NCBI GenBank assembly: GCA_016703545.1
Contig: JADJBX010000001.1
Span: 643,186 to 707,185 of the forward strand
From: Candidatus Amarobacillus elongatus
GTDB taxonomy: Bacteria > Chloroflexota > Dehalococcoidia > Tepidiformales > Tepidiformaceae
Direction: 5' to 3'
Length of the DNA: 64,000 nt
A model generated the notes under the pieces. It saw only the letters and a program-made list of their open reading frames with translations. It was not told where the DNA came from and ran no database searches. Shown piece after piece: positions 35,266 to 40,665 of this stretch. A program made the translations under genes and the position numbers. The stretch's first letter is position 1; every line of letters begins with the position of its first letter.

Positions 35266-35698
35266 TCAGGCCGGGAAAATGGACGCGAGTGGGAGGGCGA
35301 AGCCGGGGACGTCGAAGGAGGCGTCGTCGCTCGTGAGGACGGCGCCAGCGCCGTGGGTAGTGGCGGTGCCATCCGGGCGGCGAACGGTGATCTGCTTCCG
35401 TTCGGGCCAGACGAGCCAGACCCTGCGGGCGCCTGCCGCGAAGTACTGGGCGACCTTGTCCTCGATGTCGGTGGCGATTTCGGAGGGGGAGATGACTTCG
35501 ACCGCAAGGTCGGGCGCCATGGGGACGAACTCGGGGCCGAAGGACTCGCCGCCGAGGCGCGCGAAGGAGATGAAGGCGACATCGGGGAGGGCCAGGCATG
35601 GGGACCACCCTCCCGCGCACGAGCTCCGTCCTGGTCTCTTCGCAGTCCGGAAGTGCGGCGTACTCGGCGGCGGTAAGCAGGGTCTCGACGCTGGTCAT
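35266..35698 (-). pseudogene. Uma2-family (DUF820) endonuclease remnant: internal deletion plus frameshift
   Basis: The N-terminus MTSVETLLTAAEYAALPD..TELVRGRVVPMP (ATG 35698) and the C-terminal part PDVAFISFARL...APDLAVEVISPSE...AGARRVWLVWPE are in different frames, shifted near 35590-35600. They are separated by only ~5 codons. The segment normally found between these motifs in the family is absent. Confidence 0.65.
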
Positions 35699-36030: not shown

Positions 36031-37815
36031 CTAGAACGCGACGAAGCGGACGTTGTAGATGCCGTCGATGGCCTCGATGTCGGCGAGCTGCTCCTCCGAG
36101 GGGCGTTCGTCGACGGCGATGAGCATGAGGGCGCGGCCCCGGCGGCCGCGGCGCCCCACCTGCATGGAGCGGATGTTGATATCGAAGCCGCCGAGGAGGG
36201 TGCCGACGCGGCCAATCATCCCGGGTCGGTCCTCGTTATCGCAGGCGAGCAGGAACGTGCCGCGTTCGGGGATGAGGTCCACATCGAGGGCGTTGAGGAT
36301 GACGATGTGCGGATGGCCGTGCTGGACGGTGCCGGCGACGGTGACCTCGGCGTCGGTGGTCTGGACTTTGACGTGGACCAGGTTATGGAAGACCTCGTGC
36401 GAGGGCTTCATCCGCTCTTCGATCTGCCAGCCGCGCGACTGCGCGATGAGATTCGCATTCACCATATTCACGTTCTCCTCGCTGATGGGGCGAAGGAGGC
36501 CGCGGATGATGGAGGCGCGCAGCGGCGTGACGTCGTGCTCGGTGATTTCGCCGTAATACTCGATCTCGATGCCCGTCAGCTTGCCGGTGACGAGCTGCGT
36601 GGCGATCGCGCCGACCGACTCGGCAACGGTCATGTACGGCTGCACGACCTGCAGGGTCTCGGGCGCGAGCATGGGCGCGTTGACGGCGTAGCGGGCGGGC
36701 TTGCCGGAGAGGATTTCGACGATCTGCTCGGCGACATCGAGGGCGACGCGCTCCTGTGCTTCGGCCGTGCTGGCGCCGAGGTGCGGGGTGACGATGATAC
36801 GCGGGTCGCCGAGGAGCGGGTTATTGGGGTCAATCGGCTCGGCCGTGAAGACGTCGATGGCGGCGCCGGCGAGCTTCCCGGACTTCACGGCCTCGGCGAG
36901 CGCGGCTTCGTCGATGATGCCGCCGCGGGCGACGTTGATGAGGCGCGCGCCGTCCTTCATCTTCGCGATCTGCTCGGCGCCGATCATGCCGCTGGTGGAG
37001 GCGGTGAGGGGCGGGTGCACGGTGAGGAAGTCGGAGAGCATGAGGAGCTGCTCGAAATCGACGGACTCCACGCCCATGGCCTTCGCGCGCTCGGCGGGGA
37101 CGAAGGGGTCGAAGGCGAGCACCTGCATCTCCATGGCGACGGCGCGGCGGGCGACTTCGGAGCCGATCTTGCCGAGGCCGACGATGCCGAGGGTCTTGCC
37201 GCGGAGCTCGGTGCCCATGTAGTCCTTGCGGGCCCACTTGCCGGCGCGCATGGAGGCGTCGGCCTGGGGGACGTGGCGGGCGAGGGACATGAGGAGGGCG
37301 ATGGTGTGCTCGGCGGCGGCGACGGTGTTGCCCTGCGGCGCATTGACCACGATCACGCCGCGTTCGGTGGCGGCGGGGATATCGATGTTGTCGACGCCGA
37401 CGCCCGCGCGGCCGACGACGGTCAGCTTCGAGGCGGCTTCGATCACGGGGCGGGTGACCTTCGTCTCGGAACGAACGACGAGGGCATCGTAGTTGCCGAT
37501 GATGTCGACGAGGGTGTCCTGCGGGAGGCCGGTCTTCACATCGACGTCGCCGACGGCGCGAAGCATTTCGATGCCCTCGGGGGCGACGGGATCGGCGATG
37601 AGGATGCGCGGGCGTGCTTCCGTGGGCATGGGTGCGTTCTCCTTGAGGGCAGCGAGGGCGAAATCAACGGCTGCGGGGATGCGTGTCCGGCCGGAGTCCC
37701 AACGGCTGATGGTGGCCTGGTCCACGCCGAGGGTGGTGGCGATGGCGGCCTGGGAGAGGCCGAGGCGGCTGCGGGCGGCGACGAAGTCGCTGGCTTCCAT
37801 GTATGCAGAATGCAT
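36031..37815 (-). CDS. serA: D-3-phosphoglycerate dehydrogenase (long type with ASB and ACT domains) carrying an in-frame N-terminal XRE-type HTH extension
   Basis: From internal ATG 37629 (MPTEARPRILIADPVAPEGIEML...) this is a 532-aa PGDH with a Rossmann GxGxxG (GIVGLGKIG) and a C-terminal ACT domain. The 62 upstream in-frame codons encode ...MEASDFVAARSRLGLSQAAIATTLGVDQATISRWDSGRTRIPAAVDFALAALKE. No stop separates the two parts. Confidence 0.88.
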   Translation of the reverse strand: MHSAYMEASDFVAARSRLGLSQAAIATTLGVDQATISRWDSGRTRIPAAVDFALAALKENAPMPTEARPRILIADPVAPEGIEMLRAVGDVDVKTGLPQDTLVDIIGNYDALVVRSETKVTRPVIEAASKLTVVGRAGVGVDNIDIPAATERGVIVVNAPQGNTVAAAEHTIALLMSLARHVPQADASMRAGKWARKDYMGTELRGKTLGIVGLGKIGSEVARRAVAMEMQVLAFDPFVPAERAKAMGVESVDFEQLLMLSDFLTVHPPLTASTSGMIGAEQIAKMKDGARLINVARGGIIDEAALAEAVKSGKLAGAAIDVFTAEPIDPNNPLLGDPRIIVTPHLGASTAEAQERVALDVAEQIVEILSGKPARYAVNAPMLAPETLQVVQPYMTVAESVGAIATQLVTGKLTGIEIEYYGEITEHDVTPLRASIIRGLLRPISEENVNMVNANLIAQSRGWQIEERMKPSHEVFHNLVHVKVQTTDAEVTVAGTVQHGHPHIVILNALDVDLIPERGTFLLACDNEDRPGMIGRVGTLLGGFDINIRSMQVGRRGRRGRALMLIAVDERPSEEQLADIEAIDGIYNVRFVAF

Positions 37816-37843
37816 GAAGAACGTGTTTCATGCAAAGTGCATG
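37803..37843. promoter_or_regulatory. Twin palindromic operator-like sites over the start of the HTH-serA ORF
   Basis: ATGCAgaaTGCAT (37803-37815) and CATGCAaagTGCATG (37829-37843). They are also linked by an 8-bp inverted repeat TGCATGAA-N8-TTCATGCA. Locally AT-rich. Confidence 0.5.
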
Positions 37844-37971
37844 GCGGCCTGCGGCCGCCAGTTCCCCGTTGGCGGCCACTGGTTCCCGTGGCGCAGGGTG
37901 AGCGCGGCGAAAAGGGGATGGCGGTTGGCCATCCCCCTGGATTGGTTGCGACTGTGGACTGGGTCAGGCGG

Positions 37972-38442
37972 CTATTTGGTGACGGAGGAAAGGATGCGGA
38001 TCGCCGCGGCTTCGCTGATGGGACCGGGGGTGGGGAGGGTGACGATGAAGCCTCGGTCGGCGGTGAGAAGGGTGTACTCGACGAGTGGACCGGCGGTGAC
38101 GCGGTAGAGGTCCTGGCCGGCCGTTGGCGCGGGCAAGCGGTTCGCTGGGCTTTCGTCGCCGGGGAACTGGAATCGGGAGCCGACGTACAGGAGCTTGAAC
38201 CACTCGGACCCCTTCTCGTATCGCGCCTCGATCCGCGTGGGCAGGCCCGACGTCGGGAACGGAGGCATGGGGAGAATCGTGAGGGAGACGAGGCGGTAGC
38301 CTGCGGGTGGTGAGCCGAGCGGTATGGCCGCACCGGAGGCCTTCTCCGCCGCAGACGCAGCTTCAGCCGCGGAAGTGAAGGTAGTGATCTGCGGCGGTTG
38401 GCCGTTGCGCTGTTGGGACGCTCCGCACTCGCCAGGCACCAA
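37972..38442 (-). CDS. Hypothetical protein with a DUF4367-like C-terminal domain (possibly the 3' part of a longer broken gene)
   Basis: Contains ...PLGSPPAGYRLVSL...RIEARYEKGSEWFKLLYVG...LVEYTLLTADRGFIVTLPTPGPISEAAAIRILSSV. This matches the pattern of the periplasmic domain found in anti-sigma/LolA-like proteins, from my recollection of the family. TTG start directly abuts a C5/G5 run. Confidence 0.5.
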   Translation of the reverse strand: MVPGECGASQQRNGQPPQITTFTSAAEAASAAEKASGAAIPLGSPPAGYRLVSLTILPMPPFPTSGLPTRIEARYEKGSEWFKLLYVGSRFQFPGDESPANRLPAPTAGQDLYRVTAGPLVEYTLLTADRGFIVTLPTPGPISEAAAIRILSSVTK

Positions 38443-38479
38443 CCCCCACGGTCGCTACGAGGGCCACGCGGGGCCCGTG

Positions 38480-38937
38480 AGGACCGGGCAGACCCGGCCA
38501 AAGCATTGCTGGTCCCCGCGCGCGGCAGCGCGCTGCGCACCTCGAGCAGGAGCCCACACAATGTGATGTCGTAAGAGTAGAACGACTGCTGGTTCCACGC
38601 CGATAGAGCACCGAATCGGTATGAGTGATTCGGATTGTTGCCGACAACCCAGAATCGGACCCACTGGGGCGGGTGGGATGTTCCTGCCATAGAAATCGAC
38701 GAGGTCCTGCCGGTGTTGACATCTGCGCTATACGCGACGCCGTGCCACCATGAGTACGCCGGAGTACGCGCCGTGGCCGGAAGATGGACCGGCACTTCCG
38801 GTGTTCCAGCCGGAATACACCGAACGGACCTCGACCTGGGAGGCCACGGCGGTCAGTACGCCGATAGCCATCGGCAACACCAAGGCGAGCCCAACGACGA
38901 TGATGAATCGCTTGTTGGTGACGCTCGGGCTATTCAG
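38480..38937 (-). pseudogene. Fragmented ORF: signal/TM peptide plus aromatic-rich domain, interrupted by a 10-bp tandem duplication
   Basis: GGAGGG then CTG 38937 gives LNSPSVTNKRFIIVVGLALVLPMAIGVLTAVASQVEVRSVYSGWNTGSAGPSSGHGAYSG.., with a stop at 38728. A second frame continues YSWWHGVAYSADVNTGRTSSISMAGTSHPPQWVRFWVVGNNPNHSYRFGALSAWNQQSFYSYDITLCG. Deleting one copy of GAGTACGC-NN (38752-38761 / 38762-38771) joins them in frame. Confidence 0.35.
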
Positions 38938-40399
38938 GGAACCCTCCTGCGTTAGTGCGCCGAAGGTAGACCAGCCTCACGTACCAGAGACGAGCTATTC
39001 TGCGGAAGTTTCCACCGAGGGTTCTGGCAGGTATTGTCAGGCGCTGAAGACCGTCCCAAGGCAGCACGAAAGGGCTGCGGCCCAGACCTGACGCCTGAGT
39101 GCGTTCATGCAGGGGAACAATCGCATTCTGGACTCTTTCAAAGGGGGCCGGTCGGCGGCAACCGTACGCTCGCGATCCGCAACCTCCTCTGCGCTCCCCG
39201 CCCGGGGACGACTCTATTCGAGGGACTGCCGTCCGCCTGTGGCACCGGGGGGGCTGCCCCCTTTGTGATAGCGGCCGGGGGGGGTAGCGCGCTTCGGCGA
39301 GCAGCTTCTCGACGACGTCGAGGGCTTCGACGAGGTCCGAGTGCTGGAAGTAGCCGAGGTGGCCGATGCGGAAGATCTTGCCTTCGAGCTTGCCCTGGCC
39401 GCCGCCGAGCACGACGCCGTGCTCTTCGCGCGCCTTCTTGCTGATGGCCTTGCCATCGACGCCTTCGGGCCACCAGATGGCGGTGACGGTGTTCGAGGCG
39501 TACCGCTCGTCGACGGGGACGAGCTTCAGGCCGAGCGACTTCACGCGTTCGCGGGTGTAGTTCCCGGCGGCTTCGTGGCGGGTGAAGATGCCTTCGAGGC
39601 CTTCGGCGCGCATCAGCTCGAACGCCTTGTCCATCGAGTAGTAGACGGTCATGGCCGGGGTCCAGGGGTTCTGAAGCTTCTCCAGGGAGTCGCGCGTCTT
39701 CGCTGCATCGAAGTAGAAGCGCGGCATCTTCGCCTCGGCGTTCGCCGCCCAGGCGCGCTCGCTCAGCCAGACGAAGGCGAGGCCGGGGGGCACCATCCAG
39801 CCCTTCTGCGAGCCACTGACGACGACATCGAGGCCCCAGCGCTCGGCCGGGCAGGGGACGGAGCTCATGGAGCTGACGGCGTCGACGATGATCAGGCGGT
39901 CGCGGGAGCGGACTTCCTTCGCGATCGCCTCGAGGGGGTTGGTGACGCCGGTCGAAGTCTCGTTATGGGTGACCATGACGGCCTTGATGTCCTTGTCGGC
40001 ATCGAGGCGGCGGCCGACTTCGGCGGGATCGATCGCTTCGCCCCACTCCACGGCATAGCTTTCGATCTCGGCGCCGTAGGTCTTCGCGATGCTGCGAAGG
40101 CGGTCGCCGAAGGAGCCGATGGAGCAGGCGAGCACCTTGTCGCCGGGGCTGAGAGTGTTGACGACGGCGGTTTCGAGGCCGCCCGTGCCGGACGTGGTCA
40201 GCGAAAGGACATCGCTGTTCGTACCGAAAACCCAGTTCAGGCCGTCAGTGACGCGCCGGATGATCTGGGCGAACTCGGGACCGCGGTGGTTCATCATGGG
40301 CGCGGCGCTCGTCTGCAGGACGTCCTTGGGGATGGGGGTGGGGCCGGGAATGCGGAGGTTGACCAAGGAGTGGCTCCGGGGGAGGTGAGTGCGAATCAT
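38930..40399 (-). CDS. Class-V aminotransferase (serine-glyoxylate / phosphoserine aminotransferase-like); true 3' end probably near 39290
   Basis: ATG 40399 gives MIRTHLPRSHSLVNLRIPGPTPIPKDVL...TSGTGGLE...VVSGSQKGWMVPPGLAF (PLP-lysine SQK)...RIGHLGYF...VVEKLLAEAR, about 370 aa. The as-sequenced frame then runs ~120 more codons of non-protein-like sequence through a C8 run to TAG 38930. Confidence 0.85.
   Translation of the reverse strand: MIRTHLPRSHSLVNLRIPGPTPIPKDVLQTSAAPMMNHRGPEFAQIIRRVTDGLNWVFGTNSDVLSLTTSGTGGLETAVVNTLSPGDKVLACSIGSFGDRLRSIAKTYGAEIESYAVEWGEAIDPAEVGRRLDADKDIKAVMVTHNETSTGVTNPLEAIAKEVRSRDRLIIVDAVSSMSSVPCPAERWGLDVVVSGSQKGWMVPPGLAFVWLSERAWAANAEAKMPRFYFDAAKTRDSLEKLQNPWTPAMTVYYSMDKAFELMRAEGLEGIFTRHEAAGNYTRERVKSLGLKLVPVDERYASNTVTAIWWPEGVDGKAISKKAREEHGVVLGGGQGKLEGKIFRIGHLGYFQHSDLVEALDVVEKLLAEARYPPRPLSQRGQPPRCHRRTAVPRIESSPGGERRGGCGSRAYGCRRPAPFERVQNAIVPLHERTQASGLGRSPFVLPWDGLQRLTIPARTLGGNFRRIARLWYVRLVYLRRTNAGGFPE
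38938..39290 (-). other. AT-richer, structured ~350-nt segment of unknown function (candidate cis-regulatory leader or ncRNA)
   Basis: It lies between the conserved end of the class-V aminotransferase and the broken ORF. An 8-bp helix pairs the SD region (GAGGGUUC, 38946..38939) with GAACCCUC (39024..39017). Several further hairpins are present, plus G7 and G8 homopolymers at 39247-39253 and 39277-39284. I could not match any Rfam family by eye. Confidence 0.25.
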
Positions 40400-40647
40400 C
40401 GTCGAACGTGCGAATAAGCCGGTCAACCAGCGAACGAGCGGCGCTGGTGCGAATCGTGTGCGCTGAGGCGAGAAGGCCCCGCCCGCGCGCCTCCGGCGAT
40501 CGCACATGCGGCGGATCGTGAATCGTGTCAGGTTCGAAATCGTCCGGAAGGCGTGGGGGAGGGGCTCCGAGGGGGAGTGTGTGTTACGACTCATCGACGG
40601 TCCCAATGGAGCGTTGCCGCCGCAAATCCGGAGATCTATAGTCCCTG

Positions 40648-40665
40648 TTGTTACGGATTTCACAA
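40648..40665. promoter_or_regulatory. Rex operator-like site upstream of rex
   Basis: TTGTTACGGATTTCACAA versus TTGTGAA-N4-TTCACAA. The right half matches 7/7 and the left half 5/7. It starts 6 nt downstream of a TATAGT -10-like hexamer (40637-40642) and ends 10 nt before the rex GTG. Confidence 0.55.

Follow-up and report, generated by a model that had tools for sequence, protein, structure and literature searches.

The serA locus

This work concerns a serA gene on the minus strand of a 64 kb stretch of DNA from Candidatus Amarobacillus elongatus (contig JADJBX010000001.1); the whole stretch of 64,000 nucleotides (nt) that was analysed is called here the window. The gene encodes a D-3-phosphoglycerate dehydrogenase (PGDH) to which a helix-turn-helix (HTH) domain of the XRE (Cro/CI) type is joined in frame at the N-terminus, and two palindromes lie just before its start codon. 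We think it likely that this bifunctional protein, HTH-SerA, is a trigger enzyme that represses its own transcription. The features of the locus are the following:

36031-37800, minus strand: HTH-PGDH fusion open reading frame (ORF), 589 amino acids (aa), formed by HTH, linker and type I PGDH
37829-37843, minus strand: predicted distal operator (O_D), CATGCA-CTT-TGCATG, with the core ATGCA-N3-TGCAT at 37830-37842
37803-37815, minus strand: predicted proximal operator (O_P), ATGCA-TTC-TGCAT, ending 2 nt before ATG 37800
37798-37800, minus strand: conserved start codon of the fusion, ATG in all 33 tabulated loci and GTG in L210
37636-37800, minus strand: HTH of the XRE/Cro-CI type (residues 1-55), supported by Pfam, invariant columns, the AlphaFold2 (AF2) model, fold neighbours and a ratio of nonsynonymous to synonymous differences (pN/pS) of 0.32
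37639-37644, minus strand: internal Shine-Dalgarno (SD) sequence AAGGAG, within codons K53-E54 and 9 nt before ATG 37629
37627-37629, minus strand: internal in-frame ATG (M58), 9 nt after the SD and followed by the canonical PGDH N-terminus
37615-37635, minus strand: flexible linker between HTH and enzyme, roughly residues 56-62 (about 10 residues)
36679-37614, minus strand: PGDH catalytic unit (substrate- and NAD-binding domains, about residues 63-374; Pfam 2-Hacid_dh and 2-Hacid_dh_C)
36301-36645, minus strand: ASB (intervening) domain (Pfam PGDH_inter, E = 7e-31), which defines type I PGDH
36031-36243, minus strand: ACT regulatory domain (Pfam ACT; effector-site residues N522, D524, R525 and N542) and the stop codon

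The minus-strand frame is uninterrupted from 37815 to the stop codon at 36031, and it contains ATG codons at 37815 and 37800 and an internal one at 37629. An earlier sequence-only reading had described a fusion with no stop between HTH and PGDH, two perfect palindromes with centres 27 bp apart in an AT-rich patch, and an AAGGAG placed 9 nt before ATG 37629. The frame is indeed open, and all these sequence features were found again in every detail (the AAGGAG at 37644-37639). The patch at 37801-37845 has a G+C content of 44% versus 68.6% in the window, and it ranks among the 0.2% of 45-mers that are poorest in G+C. As regards the two upstream starts that had been considered, ATG 37800 holds as the conserved one, at the head of the motif M-[DEN]-A-x-x-F, and ATG 37815 does not hold, being merely a part of the proximal palindrome. 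In the relatives an ATG equivalent to 37815 is in frame only where the gap to the start is 2 or 5 nt.

The comparative set was formed by 33 loci tabulated for operators and starts, 32 that were aligned, and 30 that were used for the internal start and for pN/pS. The carriers of the fusion that we have seen are metagenome-assembled genomes (MAGs) or metagenomic contigs throughout, and the databases name their proteins plainly "phosphoglycerate dehydrogenase".

The HTH domain

Residues 1-55, numbered from ATG 37800, read MEASDFVAARSRLGLSQAAIATTLGVDQATISRWDSGRTRIPAAVDFALAALKEN. The isolated domain is modelled by AF2 as a confident four-helix fold (helices 3-13, 17-24, 28-36 and 43-55) with a predicted local distance difference test (pLDDT) score of 88; helices 2 and 3 of this compact bundle form the HTH, and the fifth helix that is usual in XRE domains is absent from the model. 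When residues 9-45 are scanned alone, HTH_3 (PF01381) scores 27.1 against a cut-off of 23 and HTH_31 (PF13560) 28.8 against 27; in a scan of the whole protein they reach 22.5 and 23.9, respectively, slightly under the gathering cut-offs. Seven residues (V26, D27, Q28, T30, S32, R33 and W34) are invariant, and they lie in or beside helix 3, which is the presumed recognition helix. The closest solved folds are C.BclI, C.EcoT38IS, P2 C, P22 c2, HigA2, HipB, MqsA and Aca1/2, with template modelling (TM) scores of 0.6-0.83. They are palindrome-binding autoregulators of the Cro/CI class, including controller proteins of restriction-modification (R-M) systems, and sequence searches with the HTH agree with the fold search in placing XRE relatives nearest.

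Across 30 species pN/pS is 0.32 in the HTH, 0.66 in the linker and 0.26 in the enzyme core, the synonymous differences being about 0.5 in the three segments alike. The linker has a pLDDT of about 61 in the full-length AF2 model and differs in length among species. The proposal that the extension is a complete Cro/CI-type HTH is thus borne out by the Pfam scores of the domain alone, by its pN/pS and by the confidence of its model, and the data support that it is a real, translated domain of the XRE type under purifying selection.

The enzyme

The four Pfam domains 2-Hacid_dh, 2-Hacid_dh_C, PGDH_inter and ACT all pass their cut-offs and stand in the order of a type I PGDH (PMC6300728). The NCBIfam equivalog TIGR01327 matches residues 65-588 with 664.3 bits, versus a cut-off of 454. 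The catalytic residues R292, E321 and H340 align to R233, E262 and H280 of the Mycobacterium tuberculosis enzyme and are invariant in 62 sequences. Residues N522, D524, R525 and N542, all four invariant in the family, align to Y461, D463, R464 and N481 of M. tuberculosis, which form the L-serine site of that enzyme (PMC6300728). In a PDB search the best solved relatives of the PGDH part are the M. tuberculosis structures 1YGY and 3DDN, and the full AF2 model likewise has the type I PGDH of M. tuberculosis as its closest structure. The fusion protein appears from these comparisons to be a type I D-3-phosphoglycerate dehydrogenase (SerA) with its enzyme intact.

In 27 of the 33 loci a class-V aminotransferase gene lies upstream of HTH-serA and in the same direction. 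It gave no NCBIfam equivalog match above cut-off, and from the context only we take it to be phosphoserine aminotransferase.

A different role for the PGDH body would be that of a sensor only, for 3-phosphoglycerate, NAD(H) or serine, with the catalysis left to a separate serA. Enzyme folds are sometimes recruited as sensors, and CtBP, which belongs to the same superfamily, is a transcriptional corepressor (PMC6303947). We consider this role quite improbable for HTH-SerA: the TIGR01327 score is far over the equivalog cut-off, the catalytic triad is invariant in a core with a pN/pS of 0.26, the conserved internal SD and start (see below) would yield specifically the enzyme without HTH, the gene stands beside the aminotransferase in most loci, and there is no second PGDH within the window.

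Distribution and age of the fusion

The best 120 homologues of the window protein in NCBI, JGI, ENA and Logan assemblies are all HTH-PGDH fusions, with identities of 74-99%. The best 120 homologues of L026, the most divergent member examined, are all fusions as well; this search brought 30 clusters more, among them one from Candidatus Amarobacter glycogenicus (Tepidiformaceae, Tepidiformia). Altogether at least 150 clusters, formed at 90% identity, have the fusion, with lengths mostly of 586-605 aa; wherever a carrier has a name, it is one of the Chloroflexota of Tepidiformaceae type. When one genome per species was scanned, it was found in 31 GTDB species representatives, all of them labelled Chloroflexota, Dehalococcoidia or Tepidiformaceae, and in the other loci of Dehalococcoidia and SAR202 the PGDH is a plain one. 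The in-frame fusion read in the window is therefore the architecture of both sets of best 120 homologues and of the 31 species representatives; the homologues are fused, and orthologues with a separate XRE gene were not found among them.

In a neighbour-joining tree made from the PGDH cores only, the fusion proteins form one clade, with core identities of 67-100% inside it and of 40-55% to HTH-less PGDHs. Since the fusion cores are monophyletic, the tree points to a single, ancient fusion event that has been stably retained.

A trivial origin of the fused frame would be an error of assembly or sequencing, such as a missed stop or an indel joining two genes. A broken frame does occur, but only in isolated copies, namely in L029 and in the singleton clusters P0163 and P0210. 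The same in-frame junction recurs at 67-100% identity in NCBI, JGI, ENA and Logan assemblies, hundreds of them and independent of each other, so the artefact is refuted by the comparative data and its probability is, in our opinion, practically nil.

In L029 (3001-3219, on a MAG contig of 1.96 Mb) HTH-serA is frameshifted after about 12 codons. No other species representative of the 31 has a broken copy, and the frameshift probably comes from an error of assembly.

Candidates for fusions outside the clade were looked for in a library of representatives at 50% identity and were rejected, as they were only fragments from the same family, N-termini of plain PGDHs or unrelated multi-HTH proteins. 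Four loci whose alignment begins at residues 30-35 (L037, L048, L052 and L063) turned out on inspection to be without HTH. The same library contains P0122 and about 60 other proteins of 300-1050 aa with 4-12 tandem HTH repeats of the XRE type. These repeats are 30-40% identical to the fusion HTH, and P0122 itself has 1048 aa and 11 HTH_3 stretches according to Pfam.

The twin palindromes

The pattern ATGCANNNTGCAT occurs in the window only at O_D and O_P. The number expected by chance is 0.01, and none of 100 shuffles contained two or more matches. Both sites, of the form (A)TGCA-N3-TGCA(T), are present in 33 of 33 loci with centres 26-28 bp apart, in DNA that is otherwise unconserved. O_P reads ATGCA-nAn-TGCAT in all 33 and ends 2-5 nt ahead of the start codon, a distance at which an SD has no room. 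O_D has an unvarying ATGC and TTGCAT throughout the 32 aligned loci; in three loci its left half reads ATGCG. Of the core TGCA-N3-TGCA there are 63 occurrences in the 190 kb of these loci, and each lies no more than 60 nt upstream of a fusion start. Around 45 HTH-less PGDH genes (269 kb) only 2 core sites were counted, both single and attributable to chance. No additional site that could indicate a wider regulon was found, either within the window or in the 190 kb that flank the fusion genes.

A stand-alone paralogue of the HTH is also preceded by these twin sites, which are 27 bp apart and end 3 nt ahead of its ATG:

L083, 1463-1840, plus strand: P0245, a singleton of 125 aa, divergent from a 147-aa HTH_23 protein at 914-1357 on the minus strand

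The HTH of P0245 is 50% identical to that of the fusion, its C-terminal part is unrelated and no serA accompanies it. Its C-terminal 70 residues have no match, and a family search recovered only P0245 itself. As twin sites are found there without serA, the sites follow the HTH and not the enzyme gene. This is the strongest argument available for thinking that the HTH would bind them. The layout had been recognized earlier as the classic one of an autoregulated XRE protein, and such a description suits twin sites that are invariant in sequence, spacing and position and that are tied to the HTH-bearing genes, P0245 included. We regard the palindromes as a phylogenetic footprint, and we predict that they are conserved operators.

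RNA structure was considered as the cause of this conservation and rejected. The cores are conserved in sequence without covariation, and only the flanks of O_D covary in some loci. O_D and O_P of the window can pair in RNA simply through being identical. In about 15 of the 32 loci O_D is the tip of a G+C-rich hairpin of 11-17 bp with covarying flanks, followed by a short tail containing T; the carriers are L005, L007-L009, L011, L013, L017, L019, L020, L022, L023, L027, L029 and L030, and the window clade is not among them. In the hairpin flanks 69.7% of the cells are paired, versus 31-45% with slid partners, and none of 500 shuffles reaches 69.7%. The hairpin looks like a terminator of the upstream aminotransferase gene that was built around the operator. 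O_P is without an extended hairpin, and in the window clade both sites are without an extended stem.

Several other occurrences of similar sequences should be mentioned. The twin-operator pattern gave at least 120 matches in metagenome contigs; among the 120 listed, 9 are HTH-PGDH loci and the rest are heptamer tandem repeats or unrelated sequences. Tandem ATGCATN heptamers, for example (ATGCATA)n and (ATGCATC)n, account for L084-L088 and most of L089-L208; metagenomic and viral contigs often contain them, and they dominate the searches for the operator pattern. A phage origin of the HTH-operator module was also tried and rejected: the five IMG/VR matches of the pattern are all ATGCATN tandem repeats, and the neighbour of P0245 is only a generic HTH_23 protein. 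Twin ATGCA-N3-TGCAT sites lie beside a gene for a MarR-type regulator at L101 3940-3978 and L160 1340-1378, on contigs with 73-74% G+C. In L101 the gene across from MarR encodes a long, apparently membrane-bound protein of transporter-like appearance. The sites of these two MarR/MFS loci look like unrelated operators that share the half-site by chance.

Putative promoter and transcript start

The 3' half of O_D, TTGCAT (37835-37830), resembles a -35 hexamer. In every one of the 32 aligned loci T is the third base of the O_D spacer; this T disturbs the dyad symmetry and produces the TTGCAT. O_P holds a -10-like CATTCT (37812-37807), 17 nt downstream of TTGCAT, whose form in the family is CAnAnT. 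Across loci the distance from TTGCAT to CAnAnT is 16-18 nt, and CAnAnT starts 12-15 nt before the ATG. Leaderless bacterial genes have a TAnnnT box at that position, about 12 nt before the start, and no SD (PMC3160421). From these hexamers, O_D and O_P would overlap the -35 and -10 elements of the gene's own promoter. Whether the mRNA is leaderless, starting at or next to ATG 37800, is in our opinion a matter of about even chances. As the sites cover either the promoter or the start, binding to them would be repressive in both cases.

The same overlap can be turned into a different explanation, in which the palindromes belong elsewhere, as promoter or terminator elements or as sites of another regulator, and the HTH binds at other places or makes contacts with protein or RNA. 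Both sites do overlap the -35-like and -10-like hexamers, and in the hairpin loci O_D sits in a covarying structure resembling the aminotransferase terminator. Nevertheless, promoter elements do not need perfect dyad symmetry at both sites; O_P has no extended hairpin, and the sites of the window clade have no extended stem. Moreover, the motif is absent as twin sites from the 45 HTH-less PGDH loci and from the rest of the fusion loci's 190 kb, and it accompanies P0245, where there is no serA. We find this explanation unlikely.

The internal start

An AGGAG is found 6-12 nt before an internal ATG in 30 of 30 loci. Residue 53 varies between K, Q and R (AAG, CAG and AGG) with a codon that always ends in AG, even if AGG makes up only 2.1% of the Arg codons, and the codon of E54 is GAG in 30 of 30 loci versus 59% GAG in the remainder of these genes. 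The AGGAG is therefore kept while the residue varies, which indicates selection on the nucleotides, as an SD requires. In L209 a GTG at the same spacing of 9 nt replaces the internal ATG. The sequence-only reading had raised the possibility that SerA is produced both as a fusion and on its own, and this conservation of AGGAG and start codon at the nucleotide level has strengthened it. Where the internal start is present, it is probably used, and it would give an HTH-less SerA isoform.

In the subclade formed by L080, L081 and L082 the AGGAG and the internal start have both been lost, and the HTH and both operators have been kept. The full-length fusion must thus be the working enzyme there. 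This subclade is of value in considering whether the extension could be a vestige, with SerA made only from the internal start and the 57 codons before it left over from a separate XRE gene that lost its stop. Such a history would fit the strong SD and the ATG placed exactly at the canonical PGDH N-terminus, as well as ATG 37800 being without SD. It is difficult to reconcile with purifying selection on the HTH at the amino acid level among species whose pS is about 0.5, with a frame that is open in at least 150 clusters, and with L080 and L082, in which precisely the internal SD and ATG were lost and the HTH and operators were retained. The vestige is strongly disfavoured, and we hold it to be very improbable.

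A probable trigger enzyme for serine synthesis

The reading that we prefer is that of HTH-SerA as a repressor of its own gene. Two features of a trigger enzyme are present: the union of an enzyme with a DNA-binding domain in a conserved polypeptide, and a conserved predicted operator at its own promoter. According to the proposed mechanism, pairs of HTH domains from the oligomeric enzyme would bind the two identical ATGCA-N3-TGCAT palindromes, and, as these overlap the gene's own promoter, HTH-SerA would repress its own transcription. From a single mRNA, initiation at the 5' start would give HTH-SerA and initiation at M58, after the internal SD, plain SerA; the two forms could mix in one oligomer. 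We infer the DNA binding, the repression rather than activation and the use of both starts from comparative genomics.

Several observations weigh against this mechanism. The centres of the half-sites are only 8 bp apart, a shorter distance than in the operators of phages 434 or lambda. The operator centres are separated by 2.5-2.7 helical turns and would thus lie on roughly opposite faces of the DNA. The case for binding of the twin sites by the HTH is one of co-occurrence only. The promoter hexamers are weak, as TTGCAT agrees at 3 of 6 positions and CAnAnT is without the -12 T (it has C first), and a scan of 37600-38000 with consensus promoter and terminator models gave nothing at threshold. 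An SD was present in only 3 of 18 called genes of related loci, so that a missing SD at ATG 37800 is unremarkable in itself; SDs seem to be uncommon in the lineage as a whole. Finally, in the approximately 15 hairpin loci O_D may be conserved partly for terminating the upstream gene.

Modulation of the DNA binding by serine via the ACT domain is an attractive extension that may apply. A fuller version would be a feedback system in one protein: L-serine at the ACT domain, or 3-phosphoglycerate or phosphate at the ASB domain, would shift the quaternary state, which would inhibit catalysis and at the same time align the HTH pairs with the operators, and the ratio between leaderless and internal initiation would set the number of HTH domains per oligomer. 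We put this version forward tentatively, and it may well prove wrong. If it were true, serine would control enzyme activity and serA transcription via the same allosteric transition, and the number of HTH-bearing subunits per oligomer would tune the threshold of repression.

Comparison with known systems

PutA of proteobacteria is a classic trigger enzyme that represses its own locus and in which an N-terminal DNA-binding domain precedes amino acid dehydrogenase domains (PMC5397151). HTH-SerA is similar to it in having a DNA-binding domain and an enzyme of amino acid metabolism in one polypeptide. PutA differs in that its DNA-binding domain is a ribbon-helix-helix, its enzyme domains are unrelated, its role is catabolic and its switch is the association with the membrane on flavin reduction. 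BirA, NadR and archaeal RbkR also have an N-terminal HTH or winged HTH fused to an enzyme of the regulated pathway, and it was comparative genomics that revealed RbkR, through palindromic and frequently tandem operators ahead of the operon to which it belongs (PMC5397151). These three proteins have other DNA-binding folds and enzymes, and they sense a product or intermediate at the active site, whereas HTH-SerA has a separate ACT domain. They belong to cofactor metabolism, and none of them is associated with the biosynthesis of serine or another amino acid or with an ORF with dual starts. The Pfam, NCBIfam and PDB searches gave no homology to PutA, BirA, NadR or RbkR, only PGDH/D-2-hydroxyacid dehydrogenase (2HADH) and XRE relatives.

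On the enzyme side, residues 63-580 align over the full length of M. tuberculosis SerA1 (1YGY/3DC2/3DDN) with E = 1.5e-101, 39% identity and the same domain order. The catalytic triad is shared, and three of the four residues of the L-serine site are kept, Tyr461 being Asn in HTH-SerA. CtBP resembles HTH-SerA in that a member of the D-2-hydroxyacid dehydrogenase superfamily couples transcriptional repression to NAD(H) binding; however, it is a eukaryotic corepressor that is recruited by other DNA-binding proteins, lacks a domain for binding DNA itself and takes no part in serine synthesis.

On the DNA-binding side, the small XRE autoregulators (C proteins of R-M systems, MqsA, P22 c2, 434 repressors, Aca1/2, HigA and HipB) bind as dimers to short palindromes that overlie the promoters of their own genes, and in many cases two such sites are adjacent. 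The transcripts of C proteins are often leaderless, and the site of MqsA, ACCT-N2-4-AGGT, has a geometry like that of ATGCA-N3-TGCAT. These regulators stand alone, have 60-130 aa and dimerise by a helix or domain of their own, whereas in HTH-SerA four helices are tethered to an oligomeric enzyme, which presumably supplies the oligomerisation of the HTH.

Neither the classification of PGDH into three types (PMC6300728) nor the 2HADH knowledgebase (PMC6303947) mentions a DNA-binding form, and a full-text search of the literature on PGDH with HTH or fusion, trigger enzymes, PGDH types and Tepidiformaceae found no DNA-binding PGDH described. If our reading is true, HTH-SerA would be a fourth PGDH architecture beside the three accepted ones, none of which binds DNA. 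It would also be the first case found of an amino acid biosynthetic dehydrogenase that is its own transcription factor, which would extend the principle of PutA, BirA, NadR and RbkR to serine synthesis. PGDH is among the most studied allosteric enzymes. The system is compact: two copies of a 13-bp site, a domain of 55 residues, an allosteric domain that is intact and two translation starts that are conserved. We think that it offers a handle on gene regulation in the Tepidiformaceae, a group that is little understood and to which abundant bacteria of activated sludge such as Candidatus Amarobacter glycogenicus belong. It might also be of use in synthetic biology as a self-contained, metabolite-linked pair of repressor and operator. 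Its reach is limited by its occurrence in one bacterial family and by the fact that the principle of enzyme-repressor fusions is already known.

Neighbouring genes

Between the aminotransferase gene and HTH-serA the window has an insert of about 1.4 kb (37850-39285, minus strand), where most relatives have about 50-150 bp. It contains an ORF of 156 aa (37972-38442) with no Pfam or NCBIfam match, which is found 68-72% identical at the same place only in L001-L003. After it, at about 37911-37937, there is a terminator-like hairpin, GGGGGAUGGC...GCCAUCCCC-UUUU. The aminotransferase ORF (38930-40663, minus strand) has TAC (Tyr) at 39284-39286, where L001 and L002 stop (...EKLLxAAR*), and it reads through for about 118 extra codons, rich in Arg, Pro and Gly and near a run of C, to a stop at 38930. 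This extension is due either to the loss of the stop codon or to a sequencing error.

Downstream of serA, at 35266-35520 on the minus strand, an ORF of 84 aa matches only positions 95-159 of the 172 of the profile of Uma2, a putative restriction endonuclease. From this partial match it can be taken as a truncated or frameshifted copy; intact Uma2 genes are found downstream of HTH-serA in L209. In one species a phosphoesterase of 231 aa with a PHP domain (L082, 3218-3913) is encoded between the aminotransferase and HTH-serA, and it might supply the phosphoserine phosphatase that is otherwise missing from the pathway.

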